This document shows positions 2,039 through 35,205 of a stretch of 35,205 nt of DNA, piece by piece. Location of the stretch: UHGV virus genome UHGV-0178511, one strand, 5' to 3'. Positions within the stretch are counted from its first letter, which is position 1, and every line of letters starts with the position of its first letter. A model generated the notes under the pieces. That model saw only the letters and a program-made list of their open reading frames with translations. It searched no databases and was not told where the DNA came from. The translations under genes and the position numbers were made by a program. The DNA is from a virus.

Positions 2039-2290
2039 TCACGCTGCTCGTTGAGTTTTGATTTTTGCTGTCTCCAGCTCAACACGCAGTTTCCCCACCG
2101 TTAGCGCAATATCCTCGTTCTCCTGGTCGCGGCGTTTGATGTATTGCTGGTTTCTTTCCCGTTCATCCAGCAGTGTCAGCACAATCGATGGTGTTACCAG
2201 CTCATGGAAAAGGTTCGCGTCAAATCCCCAGTTGTCAGGCATTGCCTGCTCTGCCGCTTCACGCAGTGCCTGAGAGTGAATTACGCTCAC
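2039..2290 (-). CDS. Hypothetical protein (ea-region)
   Basis: 83-aa ORF; stop overlaps the upstream gene start (ATGA coupling). Confidence 0.45.
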   Translation of the reverse strand: MSVIHSQALREAAEQAMPDNWGFDANLFHELVTPSIVLTLLDERERNQQYIKRRDQENEDIALTVGKLRVELETAKIKTQRAA

Positions 2291-3922: not shown

Positions 3923-4704
3923 GCAGCCACCTTCTGCTCAGTGGCTTTCTGTTTCAGGAATCCAAGAGCTTTCACTGCTTCGGCCTGTGTCAGTTCTGAC
4001 GATGCGCGAATGTCGCGGCGAAATATCTGGGAACAGAGCGGCAATAAGTCGTCATCCCATGTTTTATCCAGGGCAATCAGCAGAGTGTTAATCTCCTGCA
4101 TGGTTTCATCGTTAACCGGAGTGATGTCGCGTTCCGGCTGACGTTCTGCAGTGTATGCGGTATTTTCGACAATGCGCTCGGCTTCATCCTTGTCATAGAT
4201 ACCAGCAAATCCGAAGGCGAGACGGGCACACTGAATCATGGCTTTATGCCGTAACATCCGTTTGGGATGCGACTGCCACGGCCCCGTGATTTCTCTGCCT
4301 TCGCGGGTTTTGAATGGTTCGCGGCGGCATTCATCCATCCACTCGGTAACGCAGATCGGATGATTGCGGTCCTTGCGGTAAATCCGGCATGTGCAGGATT
4401 CATTGTCCTGCTCAAAGTCCATGCCATCAAACTGCTGGTTTTCATTGATGATACGGGACCAGCCATCAACGCCCACCACCGGAACGATGCCGTTCTGCTT
4501 GTCAGGGAAGGCGTAAATTTCTTTCGTCCACGGATTAAGGCCGTACTGGTTGGCGACGATCAGCAATGCGATGAACTGCGCATCGCTGGCATCACCTTTA
4601 AATGCCGTCTGGCGAAGAGTGGTGATCAGTTCCTGTGGGTCGACAGAATCCATGCCGACGCGTTCAGCCAGCTTCCCAGCCAGCGTTGCGAGTGCTGTAC
4701 TCAT
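3919..4704 (-). CDS. bet: Lambda Bet (Red beta) single-strand annealing protein
   Basis: 261 aa, [37 protein letters not shown]...; overlaps exo start by 4 bp. Confidence 0.95.
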
Positions 4705-12289: not shown

Positions 12290-12456
12290 TTGACCCAAAT
12301 CGAAGTTACGAACAAGAAAGCGTCGAGCGGGCTTTAACGTGCGCTAACTGCGGTCAGAAACTGCATGTGCTGGAAGTTCACGTGTGCTCCGATTGCTGCG
12401 CAGAACTGATGAGCGATCCGAATAGCTCAATGTACGAGGAAGAAGACGATGAATGA
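12286..12456 (+). CDS. ninF: NinF-like small Cys-containing protein
   Basis: Apparent GTG start overlapping ninE stop; [33 protein letters not shown]...; start codon uncertain. Confidence 0.5.
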
Positions 12457-13171
12457 GTTAATAAATGGCAATGCCATCAAAATGACAAGCATTGAAATCG
12501 CTGAGTTGGTGGGTAAGCGTCATGACAATGTGAAACGTACCATCGAAACGCTGGCTAAAAATGGTGTTATCCGGCTTCCTCAAATTGAGGTTTCCGAAAG
12601 AATCAATAACTTAGGGTTCAATGTTCAGTACGAGCATTACGTCTTCGAGGGCGAACAAGGTAAGCGAGACAGTATTGTCGTTGTTGCCCAGTTGTCGCCA
12701 GAGTTCACCGCTCGCCTTGTTGACCGCTGGCGAGAGCTTGAAGAAGCTGCGGTTAATATCCCCAAAACGCTACCGGAAGCGTTGCGCCTTGCTGCCGATC
12801 TTGCTGAGCAGAAAATGCAACTGGAAAACCAGCTCGCAATTGTCGCACCTAAAGTTGAGTTTGCCGATCGCGTTGGCGAGGCCAGCGGAATTTTGATTGG
12901 AAACTTTGCAAAGGTTGTTGGTATTGGTCAAAACAAACTGTTTGCGTGGATGCGTGATCACAAAATCCTTATTGCTTCAGGTTCCCGGCGCAATGTGCCA
13001 ATGCAGGAATATATGGATCGCGGCTATTTCACAGTGAAAGAAACAGCGGTCAACACAAATCACGGAATACAGATATCGTTCACCACAAAAATCACCGGGC
13101 GCGGTCAACAGTGGCTGACCAGAAAGTTGCTCGATAACGGAATGCTGAAAGTAACAGGGGAGGCTGCTTAA
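12449..13171 (+). CDS. Rha/Roi-like phage regulatory protein (antirepressor-type domains)
   Basis: 240 aa, [35 protein letters not shown]...; family assignment from memory, moderate. Confidence 0.6.
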   Translation: MNELINGNAIKMTSIEIAELVGKRHDNVKRTIETLAKNGVIRLPQIEVSERINNLGFNVQYEHYVFEGEQGKRDSIVVVAQLSPEFTARLVDRWRELEEAAVNIPKTLPEALRLAADLAEQKMQLENQLAIVAPKVEFADRVGEASGILIGNFAKVVGIGQNKLFAWMRDHKILIASGSRRNVPMQEYMDRGYFTVKETAVNTNHGIQISFTTKITGRGQQWLTRKLLDNGMLKVTGEAA

Positions 13172-16866: not shown

Positions 16867-17388
16867 ATGAATATCGTGCCACTTAATTACAAAGGTGAAA
16901 TTGTCAGTTTCAACACTGATGGTTGGATCAACGTCACAGGTGTTGCTGAGAGATTTGGGAAACGCATTGATAACTGGATGCGTTTGGCAGAAACGCTTGA
17001 ATACGTTCGTGCTTTAGACGAAGCGTTGACCGGGAAAGAATCTCAAATTTTACATCCCTCACAATCGAGGTATGTAAAAACCAGCAAGGCACGAAAGGAC
17101 AGGGGTGGTGGTACGTGGCTACATCCAAAACTTTCAGTTGCATTTGCCCGTTGGTGTGATGCTCGTTTTGCTGTGTGGTGCGACCTGCACATTGATAGTC
17201 TGCTTCGCGGTGAACTGACTGAGCAGCAGAAATATGAGCAAGCATGTCGCATTCGCGATGACCGTAAATCAAAAGCCAGCAATGGGGCAAGAGAGATGGC
17301 TCGCTGGCGATGGGATAAGCCGGTTATTGAAGCAAATGTCGAGTACTGGCGCGAGCAACTGCAGTTGACTCTCGATATCGCTTGCTGA
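16867..17388 (+). CDS. KilA-N domain protein
   Basis: N-terminal KilA-N-like pattern (FNTDGWINVTGVAERFGKRIDNWMRL...LHPKLSVAFARWCDARF). Confidence 0.65.
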   Translation: MNIVPLNYKGEIVSFNTDGWINVTGVAERFGKRIDNWMRLAETLEYVRALDEALTGKESQILHPSQSRYVKTSKARKDRGGGTWLHPKLSVAFARWCDARFAVWCDLHIDSLLRGELTEQQKYEQACRIRDDRKSKASNGAREMARWRWDKPVIEANVEYWREQLQLTLDIAC

Positions 17389-29012: not shown

Positions 29013-30344
29013 ATGGCTACTTGGCAAGGAACAAACGGCGGATTGTTGGCTGGTATCGGCGGCGTCAACTCAAACGCTCCGAGCGTAAATGACATCGGCA
29101 ATACGCTTCAGCTTATCAGGCAGAACAATGATATTGAGCGTTCAGGCGCTAACAATGTTGGGCTGACTGCTTTGCAAGGTCTTTCAGGTATTGCGGGTGT
29201 TTTTCAGCAGGAAAAGCAGGCTCAGCGGCAGAAAGAATTTCAGCAGGCGTACGCTAATGCTTATGCGTCTGGTGATCGCGGTGCTTTGCGTCAGTTGGCT
29301 ACTCAATATCCAGACCAGATTGAATCCGTTCGTAAAGGCATGGGATTCATTGATGAAGAGCAGCGTAATTCTATCGGCACCTTAGCGGCTGGCGCACGCC
29401 TTGCGTCATCGTCTCCAGAAGCAATGCAATCATGGCTGCAAAACAACGCCGGTGAGTTAGCTCGTGTTGGCGTTAATCCTCATGACGTCGCTCAGATGTA
29501 CCAACAGAACCCGCGGCAGTTCGGCGAATTTGTCGATCATCTGGGGATGAACAGTCTCGGGCCCGAAAAATACTTTGACCTACAGGATAAAATGCAGGGT
29601 CGCCAGGTTACCATGCGCGGTCAGGATCTGGATTCGCAAACCGCCGCTCGGAATCAGGCAATCACAATGCGCGGACAAGATATCCAGGCGAATTTAGGTC
29701 AGCAGCGCATTAATCTGGACGCAGAAACAAACCGCATTAACAACGAAAATAAGCGCCTTGACCGGATGCTATCAGCAGAAACTAACGACCTGAAGCGCCA
29801 GGAAATACAGAGCCGCATAGCAGCCAACAACCAGCAGTTGCAGCAGAAGCAGCAAGCGCTAAATGATGGCTACAAAGACGGCATCAACACCCTCACAACC
29901 AGCATGTTCACTCTGAACGATATCGTTAGTTCTCCTTCACTTAAGAGCATTACAGGCTTACGTGGAGTAATCCCCAACGTTCCAGGCTCACAGGCTGCAG
30001 ACACTCAGGCACGACTTGATACCTTTAAATCACAAGCATACCTGACAGCAGTTCAGGCCATGCGAGGCATGGGCGCACTTTCTGATGCCGAGGGCAAAAA
30101 GCTCGACCAGGCTGTTGGTTCGCTGCAGAACTCGCAGAGCGAGGAGTCCTTTCGTCGCAACGCTGGCGTCATCCTGAACACGCTCAACCAGAAGCGTAAT
30201 GAGGCGGTTGGTAAGTACGTTCAGCAAAACGGTATCAAGCGAGTGGAAGCGCCTCAGGCTTCTATAGATTACCTGAAGCAGCACCCAGAGCTGTCAATCG
30301 ACTTCATTAATCGCTACGGATATCTTCCATCTTTGGGGCAGTAA
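29013..30344 (+). CDS. Ejection protein (P22 gene 20-like)
   Basis: 443 aa, Gln/Asn-rich; synteny. Confidence 0.7.
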   Translation: MATWQGTNGGLLAGIGGVNSNAPSVNDIGNTLQLIRQNNDIERSGANNVGLTALQGLSGIAGVFQQEKQAQRQKEFQQAYANAYASGDRGALRQLATQYPDQIESVRKGMGFIDEEQRNSIGTLAAGARLASSSPEAMQSWLQNNAGELARVGVNPHDVAQMYQQNPRQFGEFVDHLGMNSLGPEKYFDLQDKMQGRQVTMRGQDLDSQTAARNQAITMRGQDIQANLGQQRINLDAETNRINNENKRLDRMLSAETNDLKRQEIQSRIAANNQQLQQKQQALNDGYKDGINTLTTSMFTLNDIVSSPSLKSITGLRGVIPNVPGSQAADTQARLDTFKSQAYLTAVQAMRGMGALSDAEGKKLDQAVGSLQNSQSEESFRRNAGVILNTLNQKRNEAVGKYVQQNGIKRVEAPQASIDYLKQHPELSIDFINRYGYLPSLGQ

Positions 30345-33113
30345 ATGGCTAATTACCGTGATTTGTTAGAGCAGGCTGGCGCACGTTACGGTGTGCCAGA
30401 AGGGTTGATGACTGCACTGGGTGCCAAGGAGTCTTCTTACAACCCTGCCGCAGTAAGCTCCGCCGGGGCTGTAGGATTGACTCAGGTCATGCCTGGGACA
30501 TGGCGTGATATGGGTTATACCGATGAGCAAATGCAAAACCCCGAATATCAGGCTGACGCTGGCGCGCGCTATCTGGCAAAGATGTACCAGCAGTTTGGTA
30601 ACTGGCGTGATGCTCTTCAGGCTTATCACGACGGTCCCGGCAACGTTATGAAGGCAAAGCGTGGTGAATATACGCCAGGACCTGAAGGCCGCGGTTACGT
30701 TGATGATCGCTTTGCTCAATGGGCGGGTGACCCGGTGACAGACTCAACAGTCGAACAGCGCGCCACCTCTGCAAAGGTACATCCTCAGCAAGACCCTAAC
30801 AACCCGTTTGCACAACTGGAAGCACAGTCATCCGAACAAGTATCGGCATCAGGTGTGCAGTCAGACCCAAATAATCCATTTGCTCAGATTGAGCAGCAGG
30901 CAGCCAGTCAGCAGCCACCTCAACCCGTAAGTTCTGTCGCACCGAAACCTGTTCAGCAACAAACAGTTAATCAGGCCAATAATGAACCAGCACGTGAAGA
31001 ACCATCATTGATGCAACAAGCTGGCGATTGGCTCACAGGTGGTCAAAGTGCAGGGCAAATTACAGAGCAGGCTGGTCGTGGTCTGGTAAACATACCATTT
31101 GACGTATTGCAGGGTGGCGCAAGTCTGATTAATGCAATCAGCCAGGGGCTTGGTGGGCCAAAAGTATTGGATGATGTCTATCGTCCAGTCGACCGACCGA
31201 CAGATCCTTACGCGCAAGCTGGAGAGTCAATAGGCGGTTATCTTGTTCCTGGAGCAGGTGTAACTGGAAACATGGTCATTGGTTCTCTCGCTGACGCGGC
31301 GAATCAACGGGGTGATTTTGCCGAAAATGCCGCTATTAATGCCGGACTTAACATTGCTACGCATGGCCTGATAAATGGCGTTACCCATGGTGTTCGTGGT
31401 GCATCAAATATAATTAGTGGCAATAAAACATCTGCACAGAGAGCGACCACTGCGGCAACAGAAACATCACCATTCTCCGGTACTGCGCCAACAGAAACAT
31501 CACCATTCTCCGGTGATGCCGCTGCAGCAACAAATCCTGCGGTTCATGCCGCAGAGGCAAGAGCAGCACAAGGTGTACCAATGACGCCTGCGACGAGGGA
31601 CCCAGAGGAGGTCGTCCGCACAGTAGCAGCACAAAAAAGGCCAAATCTCGCTTCATCGCTTGATGAACTAGATATCAATCCTCAGGCTGAAGTTCTGGAG
31701 TCTGCTGAAAGGCTTAATGTTGATTCATTACTCCCTTCACACTTTTCCGGGAACGAGCAATACAAGGCAGTTGAGCAAGCAATCAAGTCCCGTGCGGGTT
31801 CCGCTCTACGGGTGCAGGAAAATGAAGCAATCAGGCAACTAGCACAGGGCGCGGGGGAGATAATTGATCGCGTTTCCGGTGCAAAAGATGCTCTTGGTAT
31901 GAGCGACAAGTTTATTGATACGATCAATGGAAGAATGTCTGCGCTGATGAAACGAAGCGACCAGCTTTATCGCAATGTTGAAAAGGCGATGCCTGCAGGT
32001 GCAAAAATTGATGCGCCATCAACAAGGTCAATGCTCAAACAGGTGGCAGAAGATCTTGGCGGGATGAAAAACCTTGACCCTATTGAAAAGAGAGTCTTTC
32101 GGGCAGTTAATCCAGGCAAGAACGGCGCATTAACTTATGCAAATCTCAATAAGCAACGACGACTTGTTGGTGATGCACTTCATAAGAATTCTGGACCATA
32201 TAAAGATGCTGATCGCGCTGCTTTATCGAGGCTTTACGGTTCGCTCGCCGATGATCAAAAGGCGGCGCTGTCAGAGACAAATGCATTACGTGATTTTGAA
32301 GTTGCTCAGAGGCTTGTTCAGATGCGAAAAAGCATGGAAGAGCAAATGATTAATCTAACTGGCAGAACGCTGAACGGTGATGTTTCTCGCAAAGCAACTA
32401 CAGCACTACAGGCAATGTCGAAAGGCGATGCCAAAGGATTTCGTGAATTGATGCAAAACACGCCGTCCAGGAAGCTAAGAACCGAGCTACTGGGAACAGG
32501 TCTTCGGGATATGCTTTCGAACGGAAAACGTGGCGCTGATTTTAATCCTGCAGGGTTTGCTGACTGGTATCAAAACATGTTAGCAAACGGGCAGATGCGC
32601 AATCTTGCCCGACATTTACCAAAAGAGACTATGTCAGGTCTGAACGATGTATATAAGGTCGCAAAGGCTATCAAAGATGCAAAATCTTACGAGATAACTA
32701 CAGGAAGACTAAACGAGTTCGTCAAACGGTTTAATCGCGTCACTGCGGCAAATGAATTTGTTGCTAACCATGCCCAACGCATTGGCACTGCGGTTGGTTC
32801 AACTGTGTCAGGACCGTTCAGTGCAGTAGGTGCTGTTGCTGGGTCAGAAATTGGGGCAAAAGTCGCCAGCAAAATCAGGGCGATGGGCGGCGCTGAATCA
32901 ATTGAATCTGCAGAAAAGCTAATTAGCTCACCAGAATTCCAGAAAGCAGCAAGGCTGGCAGTAAAACAAGCACCAGAAAGCATCGTTGATACAACTGTAA
33001 GACGCTCTTCTGCTTGGCGCTCGTTTTACAACTCACTTCCAGAATCAGATAAGAAAACCATATCAAGGCTAGGCATCATGTACTGGATGAACAGTGATGA
33101 TAACCAGAAGTAA
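30345..33113 (+). CDS. Large ejection protein with N-terminal lytic transglycosylase (SLT) domain (P22 gene 16 position)
   Basis: 922 aa; SLT motifs [27 protein letters not shown] in the first ~120 aa; internal peptide repeats. Confidence 0.8.
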
Positions 33114-33130
33114 CGGAAAGCCACGGATGG

Positions 33131-33391
33131 TTAGCTGCTGTCTTTTTTATATAGCTCTTTGAGAGTATCAAAGACAATTTTCTTAACCATATCAGATTGT
33201 TGTTCTGCCATACGCTCTGCATCGTCAATGTAAACTGATGTAGAGCTTTGTTTATCCAATGATTCTTCAATCGCTGCAATTATCTCTGAGTTCAGCGACC
33301 TGTTATTCATCTTCGCACGCAGCTTAATTTTCGCGTGGAGTTCATGCGGAAGTCTCAAGTGAAACTGCGCCTCGTCGTATTTGCTGTACAT
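33131..33391 (-). CDS. mnt: Mnt-like ribbon-helix-helix repressor
   Basis: From the internal Met: FHLRLPHELHAKIKLRAKMNNRSLNSEIIAAIEESL...DDAERMAEQQSDMVKKIVFDTLKELYKK parallels P22 Mnt FNFRMPMEVREKLKFRAEANGRSMNSELLQIVQDAL...NDAERLADEQSELVKKMVFDTLKDLYKK. Confidence 0.8.
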   Translation of the reverse strand: MYSKYDEAQFHLRLPHELHAKIKLRAKMNNRSLNSEIIAAIEESLDKQSSTSVYIDDAERMAEQQSDMVKKIVFDTLKELYKKDSS

Positions 33392-33512
33392 CCTTGATGC
33401 CTCACCAGTTGGGTGGAATGGCATCGTAACCTACTGGATAAATACTCAATAGTACCATTTCGGTATGCAATCACATCATGGTTGCATCATATCATTCGTC
33501 TGGAGCAATGAA
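33392..33512. promoter_or_regulatory. Divergent mnt/tailspike intergenic region with candidate operator palindrome
   Basis: ATGCAA-N11-TTGCAT inverted repeat at 33465-33487, followed by TATCAT (-10-like) and GGAG RBS before the tailspike ATG. Confidence 0.4.
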
Positions 33513-35205
33513 ATGTCAGATATCACCGCAAATGTTGTGGTAAGCATGCCTTCGCAACTCTTCACTATGGCTCGTTCTTTTAAAGCCGTAGCCAATGGCA
33601 AAATTTATATCGGTAAAATTGACACTGACCCGGTAAATCCAGAAAACCAGATTCAGGTTTATGTGGAAAACGAAGACGGTTCTCACGTTCCTGTTTCGCA
33701 ACCAATCATCATTAACGCTGCTGGTTACCCTGTATATAACGGACAGATTGCCAAGTTCGTAACTGTGCAAGGCCATTCTATGGCTGTTTATGATGCATAC
33801 GGTGCGCAGCAGTTCTATTTTCCGAATGTGCTAAAGTATGATCCAGATCAGTTTAAGGGCAATCTCCTGAGCGAAGATCACTCACTTGGCGACTCTCTAG
33901 TCATGCATAACCCACAGTTTGTCGATAGCACATCGACCATTCTCTCAAAAAAGCTAACTATCGACCTGAGGACGCTTACAGACTACGGGTTTGCTGAGGG
34001 AAACACCGGTGCTCAGAACAAAGCTGCATTTCAGAAGGCTATTGATGATGCTACGTTGCCAACTGAGATTGTTATACCAGAGGGGGCGTTCATTGTTGAC
34101 CCTGGTATTACGATTAAGAATACTGTCACCATGATACGAGGTGCTGGCGCATATCAGTCCAGAATTTTCTCTACGGGTACAGCGGCACCGATAATCACGC
34201 AACAAGATGGGGTAATTACGTTCTGCGAGTTCAGGGACTTTGGTCTTGACGGAAATGGCTACGCAGCTAACGGCATCAGTCTTACTGAAGCCAACCACAT
34301 TAAAATAGAAAATATTGACGTGGTTAATACTAATAACAACGCAATATTAGTTAACGGTTACTCCATTGACATCATTGGGTGCCGGTTGTTTCAAAACGCC
34401 GGTAACGGTATTAATGTTGGTGGTTACTGCAATAATATTAATATAATCAACAGCCGTATCTATGGTAACGGAGCCGGTGGAGTTTTACTTACGCCAGCTT
34501 ACGCTGAGGGCGGTATGAGCGTCAGAGTTAATGGCAACAATATAGAGCAAAATAAGTTCTACGGACTTTTGGCTTACGGGGTTAAAGGCCTTAACCTTGA
34601 TGATAACTATTGGGAACGCAACGGTGAGATTGGTTACCAGTATAGTGTACCTGAGTCTATTACAGTACGTGCGGATATCCACCTTATCGCGAACAATTTT
34701 ACATTAATTCCTGACCTTTCAAAAATTAATGATACCGTATCTATTCGCGGGAATCAGCAGACCGCGATTGGCTACGCCAGCGCGCTACCTAACCAAGACG
34801 GATTTATTTTCACGAACTATGCGAAAAACCTGACGATTGAAAATAATCAGTTATTAGACGCATCGAAAGTGAATAATTTATTAGCAATGTACCACAATAA
34901 TCTTTCGTCCAAAGTTACTGACAGGCTATATCTTGCCAACAACACAGTGAACTCCATCGGATACGTTGGTAGTTATGACCCGGCGACACAAAACCCTGAC
35001 ACTGCGCATTTAATAGATATTGCGAACAGAGAGTTAACTGCTAACTATCTTGATCGAAATATGTTGCTCTGGACTGCGGCATCTGGAACTACAGGAACAT
35101 TGATAAAAACTCAAAACATCTATGCTGGTGGATTTGCCCCTATATTTCCAGACACCTGTTATCACTTAACCCATTACTGGCCTGCTGCCGCAGATATTCC
35201 CGTGG
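33513..35205 (+). CDS. Tailspike protein, 3'-truncated: P22 gp9-like N-terminal head-binding domain plus non-P22 parallel beta-helix receptor-binding domain
   Basis: N-terminus [59 protein letters not shown] matches P22 gp9; remainder has beta-helix repeats ([51 protein letters not shown]). No stop in window; last 25 codons lie in the terminal inverted repeat. Confidence 0.9.
35128..35204. repeat. Terminal inverted repeat, right copy (exact reverse complement of 1-77)
   Basis: 77/77 identity by manual reverse complement; base 35205 (g) is beyond what can be compared. Confidence 0.9.

Follow-up and report, generated by a model that had tools for sequence, protein, structure and literature searches.

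In phage P22, the immI region, which lies between genes 16 and 9, carries mnt, a control region (Omnt/Pmnt/Pant/Oarc), arc, sar and ant, and P22 Mnt acts as a tetramer on a symmetric site with the half-site GTGGACC (PMC2726951). The region between these two genes is a variable moron, and forms retaining only mnt are found in phages ST64T, ST104 and L (PMC2629481, PMC8022706). Villafane et al. (2008) recognised ten region types among sixteen genomes, with ST64T, ST104 and Para1 carrying only mnt and one uncharacterised gene, and offered the speculation that the frequency with which late transcription extends into the tailspike gene may depend on Mnt and Arc (PMC2629481). For the mnt-like gene of phage L, Zaworski et al. 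asked whether it has a new function or is a remnant (PMC8022706). Here, a stretch of 35205 nucleotides of the virus genome UHGV-0178511 (the window) was analysed, in which an mnt gene (33131–33391, minus strand) is divergent from the tailspike gene with no arc or ant. It is probable that this locus is a compact and still functional mnt-only version of the P22 immI or 'ant moron' region.

The minus-strand open reading frame (ORF) at 33131–33424 was found to match the Pfam families Arc (PF03869, E 3.9e-14) and Repressor_Mnt (PF11423, E 3.3e-14), the latter domain covering residues 68–93 of the 97 amino acid (aa) product. The window Mnt shares 48.8% identity with P22 Mnt over 80 aa, and it also matched the structure PDB 1mnt (E 1.6e-19, residues 6–79 aligned) and the tetramerisation peptide PDB 1qey (E 1.5e-8). 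The gene thus encodes an 86-aa repressor of the Mnt family, with an N-terminal Arc-like ribbon-helix-helix domain and the C-terminal tetramerisation helix that sets Mnt apart from Arc; a symmetric operator beside a leftward promoter of its own, a further trait of the family, is present at the sequence level (33452–33466). An earlier note on this DNA had described a clear Mnt homologue separated by 121 bp from a divergent tailspike gene, and both statements were upheld.

The start at ATG 33391 (86 aa) is favoured because it matches the N-terminus of P22 Mnt, because a stop codon lies directly upstream of it in relative L088 (85% identity), and because it is the start called by PGAP in Escherichia coli FDN-24. 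The start at ATG 33424 (97 aa), as annotated in phage Sf101, overlaps the conserved −10 of the mnt promoter and is unlikely. With Mnt starting at 33391, the intergenic region ahead of the tailspike start codon (ATG 33513) is exactly 121 bp. In Sf101 (KJ832078/NC_027398), the Mnt homologue, gp14, is labelled 'putative chromosome segregation ATPase' or 'partition protein ATPase' and given the 97-aa start, and no mention of mnt was found in the text of the Sf101 paper. The same ATPase label is carried by mnt in many RefSeq records of P22-like phages, a misannotation that has spread between records, and in IME10 mnt was left unannotated.

The cassette occupies the P22 immI slot, between the homologues of genes 16 and 9. 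Searches of the window with P22 Arc, Ant, SieA and orf59a using tblastn gave no match (best E 0.8–1.6), and the best values for Arc and Ant (0.9–1.1) indicate that these genes do not follow the operator; the tailspike gene begins 47 nt past it. No Rfam match to the sar antisense RNA at or near the gathering score was found in 32900–33700, and the 5′ end of ant, which sar overlaps, is also absent, so sar is not considered to be present. No known RNA family from Rfam was detected in the spacer, and a 32-aa ORF that crosses it (33413–33511) was treated as spurious, as it is not Arc-like and is impossible in the other leader type. The earlier statement that arc, ant and sieA are missing therefore holds at the immI position and for homologues of the P22 genes, but genes for an ANT/KilAC+Rha protein (12449–13171, plus strand; nin region) and a KilA-N protein (16867–17388, plus strand; after the lysis genes) lie elsewhere in the window.

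The locus shares with P22 immI its slot, a leftward mnt, a homologous two-domain Mnt and a dyad operator whose register matches and which adjoins the −35 region of the mnt promoter, with CTCAATAG at the junction. It differs in lacking arc, ant, sar, sieA and orf59a, in the score at the Pant position (7.0 rather than 16.8; see below), in the recognition residues (Q/H/R rather than H/N/R) and in the operator (TACC-N5-GGTA rather than GTCCAC-G-GTGGAC). As in the mnt-only form of the 'ant moron', an insert flanked by the homologues of genes 16 and 9 carries mnt without arc or ant, and a promoter-like site points to independent transcription. As in the mnt-only morons of ST64T, ST104, L, SE1 and ST160, mnt has been retained, facing away from the tailspike gene, along with the operator and Pmnt but without Pant. 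However, those Salmonella phages have a second gene between gene 16 and mnt, whereas in the window mnt stands alone, 17 nt from gene 16. In this comparison, which covers ST160 and SE1 rather than ST64T, ST104 and L, these two phages fell into a different specificity class (PQFNLRL with AGACCAC-N-GTGGTCT) and had a P22-type tailspike leader.

To locate the operator, spacers were aligned in the orientation of the annotated P22 region. The P22 operator AGGTCCACGGTGGACCT aligns with AGTACCATTTCGGTATG (33450–33466) in the window, CTCAATAG precedes the operator at its junction with the −35 region in both, and the dyad is centred on the 9th nt past the −35 region's CAAT in P22 Omnt and the window alike. 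From this positional homology, together with conservation and co-variation, we conclude that GTACCATTTCGGTAT at 33452–33466, with the dyad TACC-N5-GGTA, is the predicted operator at which the window Mnt would bind. The comparison with P22 Omnt/Pant proposed in the earlier note thus yielded a counterpart of Omnt, but not at the palindrome (33465–33487) to which that note had drawn attention. The dyad occurs only once in the window. Among 57 distinct upstream regions, TACC was 100% and GGTA 99% conserved, and the ten bases past the site were 66% conserved. A pattern scan of IMG/VR for CAATNGTACCNTTTNGGTA returned at least 120 loci, and among the 120 matches listed, 108 lie beside a class-C mnt (defined below) and 3 beside a MEELETQFHLRL variant, the other 9 being fortuitous hits in unrelated DNA.

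When Mnt proteins were considered together with their upstream DNA, in 252 distinct combinations, each type of recognition strand was paired without exception with its own dyad, defining three specificity classes. The P22 type, ..PHFNFRM.., is paired with GGTCCAC-N-GTGGACC, ..PQFNLRL.. with AGACCAC-N-GTGGTC, and ..AQFHLRL.. and ..TQFHLRL.. (class C, the class of the window) with GTACC-N5-GGTA(T/C). The DNA-reading strand is ..EAQFHLRL.. in the window Mnt and ..DPHFNFRM.. in P22. A lone Phlomobacter sequence has ..PQFNFRM.. with ATATCAC-G-GTGATAT, and symmetric operator variants, GTACC..GGTAC and ATACC..GGTAT, also exist. The AQFHLRL strand is identical in 65 of 65 distinct class-C proteins, the remainder of which diverges to as little as 60% identity. 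In a Citrobacter sp. prophage (L090; coordinates 2414–2752), codon 5 of mnt is a stop (MYSK*) and the operator has GTACT in place of GTACC, so that protein and operator appear to decay together. Phage CUS-3 (L294; coordinates 1453–1982) carries two tandem mnt-like genes, one of the P22 class and one encoding a divergent ribbon-helix-helix protein, upstream of a small Arc-like ORF and ant. These were considered as a possible case of class-C Mnt accompanied by ant, but neither belongs to class C.

Promoters were scored as simple log-odds of −35, spacer and −10, which recovered P22 Pant (16.8) and Pmnt (14.4) as clear maxima. The best scores in random 151-bp windows of the phage served as background (median 6.8, 90th percentile 9.6, 95th percentile 10.7). 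In every orphan class, the best or a near-best leftward site lies at the Pmnt-homologous position, abutting the operator (8.2–12.8, with 11.8 in Gally, 10.7 in ST160, 9.4 in VSe13 and 8.2 in the window). The candidate mnt promoter of the window (33423–33449, minus strand) is made up of −35 TTGAGT (33449–33444), a 15-bp spacer and −10 TACGAT (33428–33423); the spacer is 17 bp in VSe13, JEP4 and L089-type relatives, and the −10 is 97.5% conserved. An inverted repeat, GATGCC(tCACC)...(GGTG gaat)GGCATC (33396–33425), found by inverted repeat search, extends over the promoter −10 as well as the ribosome-binding region of mnt. It recurs in Gally, ST160, VSe13, JEP4 and Serratia relatives, across all Mnt classes and with columns 95–98% conserved, and may reflect a structure at the 5′ end of the mRNA or two conserved signals that happen to coincide.

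Where P22 has its strong rightward antirepressor promoter, Pant, which overlaps the Mnt and Arc operators, the window has a putative vestige, ATGGCA-17-AATACT (33418–33446, plus strand), with a score of 7.0 that is at background level. The best rightward score was 14.4–16.8 in 47 of 47 distinct arc-containing contexts and 2.5–7.0 in about 190 orphan contexts, which argues that the rightward promoter controlled by Mnt in P22 was lost along with arc and ant. The plausible tailspike promoter proposed over the palindrome was not borne out, as the rightward candidate overlapping the palindrome scored 4.9 and the best rightward site in the region scored 7.0, against a random median of 6.8 and 16.8 for P22 Pant. 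In P22, antiterminated transcription of the late operon reads through into the tailspike gene. In the window, the tailspike gene is presumably also read from the late operon and has no promoter of its own, since no rightward promoter was found in the spacer by consensus scan, nothing resembling a terminator was found from the end of gene 16 up to the tailspike ATG, and the window encodes a late antiterminator of the Q type. Across the gene 16 region (30300–33200), no sigma-70-like promoter match was found on either strand (0 compared with 3.3 expected from shuffles).

The palindrome reported as ATGCAA-N11-TTGCAT is present, and an inverted repeat search extended it slightly to ATGCAATCA-CATCA-TGGTTGCAT (33465–33487, plus strand), with 9-nt arms complementary at 8 of 9 positions and an N5 loop. 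It does not exceed chance expectation, as 31% of shuffles and 105 of 290 real 121-bp tiles contained a 6-nt perfect inverted repeat, and the 9-nt version is expected by chance in 9–10%. The proposal that Mnt controls the tailspike gene through this site is not supported, because phages such as VSe13 and JEP4 share the DNA-reading strand but lack the palindrome, because the site that co-varies with Mnt is 33452–33466, and because there is no credible rightward promoter. Two other roles were considered and rejected. No terminator-like site was found in 33000–33700, and the palindrome does not resemble an intrinsic terminator, with only 3 G-C pairs and one G.U in a stem of 9 followed by CATATCATTCG. 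As a C2/Cro site it was dismissed because the immC operators of the window are P22-type (ATTTAAGT...) and unrelated.

The palindrome is restricted to the Sf101-type tailspike leader, and its variants retain pairing on the plus strand. At pair 7, 13 sequences have U.G, 3 have U-A and 2 have C-G, other changes (C-to-U and A-to-G) yield G.U pairs, and ATTCAAT...ATTGAAT in L088 amounts to one compensating G:C to U:A change. Overall, 97.5% of cells were paired in 18 sequences, a level reached by 9 of 500 shuffles. This pattern is suggestive only, and would fit a 9-bp plus-strand RNA hairpin in the leader of the tailspike mRNA, with a role perhaps in mRNA stability or processing.

At the same relative place, the leaders of VSe13, JEP4 and P22-type phages have another stem, CCGTAGC-CAY-GCTGCGG, in which 87.6% of cells were paired, a level reached by 0 of 500 shuffles, and three pairs show double changes. 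RNAalifold did not return this hairpin from the P22-type leaders, partly because three divergent rows were misaligned, and the pairing was then tested explicitly. The stem falls within the 'boundary sequence' of the CUS-3 record. The window thus resembles the bsq1 'boundary sequence' of CUS-3 and the P22-type gene 9 leader in having a short stem-loop 20–45 nt upstream of the tailspike start, directly after the moron, but the stem sequences (ATGCAATCA/TGGTTGCAT and CCGTAGC/GCTGCGG) are unrelated; the palindrome would be the local counterpart of such a leader hairpin. In P22 itself (L004, coordinates 2040–2290, reverse strand) and the other type-2 leaders (L094–L173), the CCGTAGC-CAY-GCTGCGG hairpin of the gene 9 leader shows compensating changes across phages.

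A broader form of tailspike control, in which Mnt represses a promoter in the spacer via the palindrome or the 33452–33466 dyad, or acts as a roadblock to rightward transcription, is unlikely. The operator is always 45–60 nt upstream of a tailspike-type start where both genes abut in relatives, an mnt of class C or its variant adjoins 111 of the 120 listed IMG/VR loci, 98 of the 120 have a tailspike-type start within 260 nt, and the Pant vestige would initiate transcription inside the operator. The idea of an influence of Mnt on tailspike expression is also not new, an effect on how often late transcription reaches this gene having been speculated on by Villafane et al. (PMC2629481). However, the rightward promoter does not rise above background in any orphan class (at most 7.0, compared with 14.4–16.8 where arc is present), the palindrome is not conserved together with the Mnt protein, and adjacency to the tailspike gene is fully accounted for by descent from immI. 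Moreover, the cassette is unchanged in about 10 relatives even though a 550–600 bp HNH endonuclease gene separates it from the true tailspike start.

This inserted gene, found in about 10 of 80 close relatives (e.g. L015:2327–2869, L020:2330–2869 and L059:2361–2855), is a leftward ORF of 164–180 aa with HNH_3 (and AP2) domains that looks like a homing endonuclease. It is inserted immediately behind codon 5 (MSDIT|) of the tailspike gene, equivalent to a position just past 33527 in the window. The original tailspike start is left as a stub, and the true tailspike gene restarts 550–600 bp further on with a new ribosome-binding site. A different arrangement at this junction was seen in APC_JM3.2 and JEP4-type phages (L027; JEP4, L005:3174–3498), in which an upstream in-frame ORF, with MKRRTLLKSLL.. 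or MNRRLFFKTIA.. as a twin-arginine-like signal peptide at its beginning, continues into the start codon of the tailspike gene.

Selection on mnt was examined in 79 copies representing 55 alleles, and 78 of the 79 copies were full-length. Variant codons included 40 synonymous and 35 nonsynonymous, giving a nonsynonymous-to-synonymous ratio of ~0.21 after site normalisation, and dN/dS (the ratio of nonsynonymous to synonymous substitution rates) relative to L088 was 0.22. Only synonymous variants, with no amino acid change, were found in codons 1–14, and nonsynonymous changes were clustered in the linker (codons 46–55). Hence mnt is under purifying selection and is not a decaying remnant, indicating that the protein is still useful. 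The earlier suggestion of a remnant after loss of ant is therefore supported as to origin, by the immI slot, the dyad in the Omnt register and the lack of arc, ant and Pant, but not as to present state.

That mnt is an inert relic simply not yet deleted is consequently highly improbable. This possibility was weighed by Zaworski et al. for phage L (PMC8022706), and it would account for the premature stop in the Citrobacter copy and for phage APC_JM3.2, where mnt has been replaced with the last ~25 nt remaining (L003, coordinates 4064–4343). However, in addition to the low substitution ratios, the AQFHLRL strand is invariant while the rest of the class-C proteins diverges, the operator core is 99–100% conserved with neighbouring bases free to vary, and the promoter −10 is conserved.

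The window derives from a temperate phage of E. coli/Shigella that is P22-like (Lederbergvirus) and mosaic, with P22-type immC operators, and the closest sequenced phage is IME10, which matched 72% of 25 kb at 97% identity. The gene 16-type ejection protein, identified from the ORF list, synteny with Sf101 gp13 and an N-terminal SLT transglycosylase domain (Pfam SLT E 3.4e-25), is 922 aa (30345–33113, plus strand). Its gene is the final late-operon gene ahead of the mnt cassette, and 17 nt separate its stop codon from that of mnt. On the other side, the tailspike gene (33513–35205, plus strand) runs past the window end and encodes a P22-type head-binding domain (Pfam Head_binding E 1.4e-67) followed by a beta-helix (Beta_helix), consistent with tailspike annotations in Sf101 and E. 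coli genomes. A Shine-Dalgarno sequence, GGAG (33502–33505, plus strand), conserved in all leaders, was read 7 nt ahead of its ATG.

The segment 33050–33650 shares 97.8% identity with Sf101 (NC_027398) and 97.3% with IME10 (NC_019501). In these two phages the cassette is essentially the same as in the window, with Mnt 95–96.5% identical and no difference of substance beyond annotation. Among 5426 complete E. coli genomes, the segment 33100–33530 was recovered from 286, with 100% identity in strain FDN-24. In 77 IMG/VR relatives, the gene 16 homologue and mnt are separated by 17 or 89 nt with no gene in between, and an mnt divergent from the tailspike gene without arc or ant was also found in ST160/SE1, Gally, VSe13 and JEP4. 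A scan of GTDB genomes gave 6 loci, which were used for diversity and were too few for statistics. The arrangement is therefore common, already described and ordinary. In the FDN-24 chromosome (L440), it lies in the argW region in a heavily deleted prophage that has kept a truncated gene 16, intact mnt, the tailspike gene, an O-antigen acyltransferase gene and the integrase gene.

The persistence of mnt even in this prophage remnant, together with purifying selection in the absence of a target in cis, could indicate immunity acting in trans, in which relatives that superinfect the lysogen or reside alongside the prophage, and that have the same operator, would have their antirepressor promoter silenced by Mnt, sparing the lysogen forced induction. 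Antirepressors do act in trans between prophages (PMC7380047). However, none of the 120 listed class-C matches in IMG/VR lies beside arc or ant, as 111 are orphan cassettes and 9 chance matches. No second Mnt site was found in the 35-kb window, where the vicinity of the ANT/KilAC+Rha and KilA-N genes also lacks an Mnt-type dyad, or in the prophage arm right of the tailspike gene in FDN-24, and the antirepressor operons upstream of mnt in JEP4-type relatives have no second class-C site at their control region. Immunity in trans is thus quite unlikely. It is very unlikely, too, that the orphan Mnt has been repurposed as a prophage weapon or lock at the tailspike junction, cutting tailspike expression of kin or silencing unsampled antirepressor promoters. 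Under this proposal, thousands of related phages have the single operator within their late operon, a short way upstream of the tailspike gene, and resident Mnt could bind the genomes of incoming or co-resident kin with an operator of the same class.

Returning to the view that the locus is a working mnt-only form of immI, an ancestral mnt<-Omnt/Pant->arc-ant module would have lost arc, ant and the strong Pant, with the lost stretch beginning immediately right of the operator and reaching the tailspike leader. The remaining cassette would consist of mnt, its leftward promoter and one dyad operator (33452–33466) abutting the −35. By homology with P22 Mnt, the protein would be made from its own promoter in the lysogen, form a tetramer via the C-terminal helix on TACC-N5-GGTA, contacted through Gln/His/Arg of the beta-strand, and, once bound, regulate its own promoter and block residual rightward initiation at the Pant vestige. 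The tailspike gene would be the last gene of the Q/gp23-antiterminated late operon, which is read through mnt in antisense, and the palindrome would be a small plus-strand RNA hairpin of the tailspike leader, unrelated to Mnt. In P22, two direct copies of AAAATTCACCGTAGCCAYGCT were found around the stretch past the ant terminator, and these are a plausible recombination joint for arc-ant loss.

Several points weigh against this interpretation. The window Pmnt candidate, with its 15-bp spacer, scores below the 90th percentile of random windows (8.2 compared with 9.6), and rival leftward sites at 33519–33491 (8.9) and 33514–33486 (8.1) score similarly, leaving the mnt start site uncertain. The hairpin sample consists of 18 close relatives with one pair changed on both sides, and the regulatory steps proposed for this class of Mnt are all inferred. 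Self-regulation alone also leaves the purifying selection unexplained, which implies a further target or role.

As first put forward, the finding matters little, as the arrangement is common and present in published phage genomes, and the question had already been asked for phage L. What is gained is a comparative rule, that orphan cassettes keep mnt, the operator and Pmnt and lose Pant, and a correction of the 'partition protein ATPase' misannotation. If Mnt did act as a weapon or lock against kin, this would represent inter-phage interference independent of the main immunity region. The analysis also provides a testable operator for an uncharacterised Mnt specificity class, in which an AQFHLRL strand is paired with a TACC-N5-GGTA dyad, and the three natural protein/operator classes form a small data set on the diversification of recognition by ribbon-helix-helix proteins. 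With the operator prediction, the keep-and-lose rule and the purifying selection, the question of remnant or function becomes a concrete experiment.

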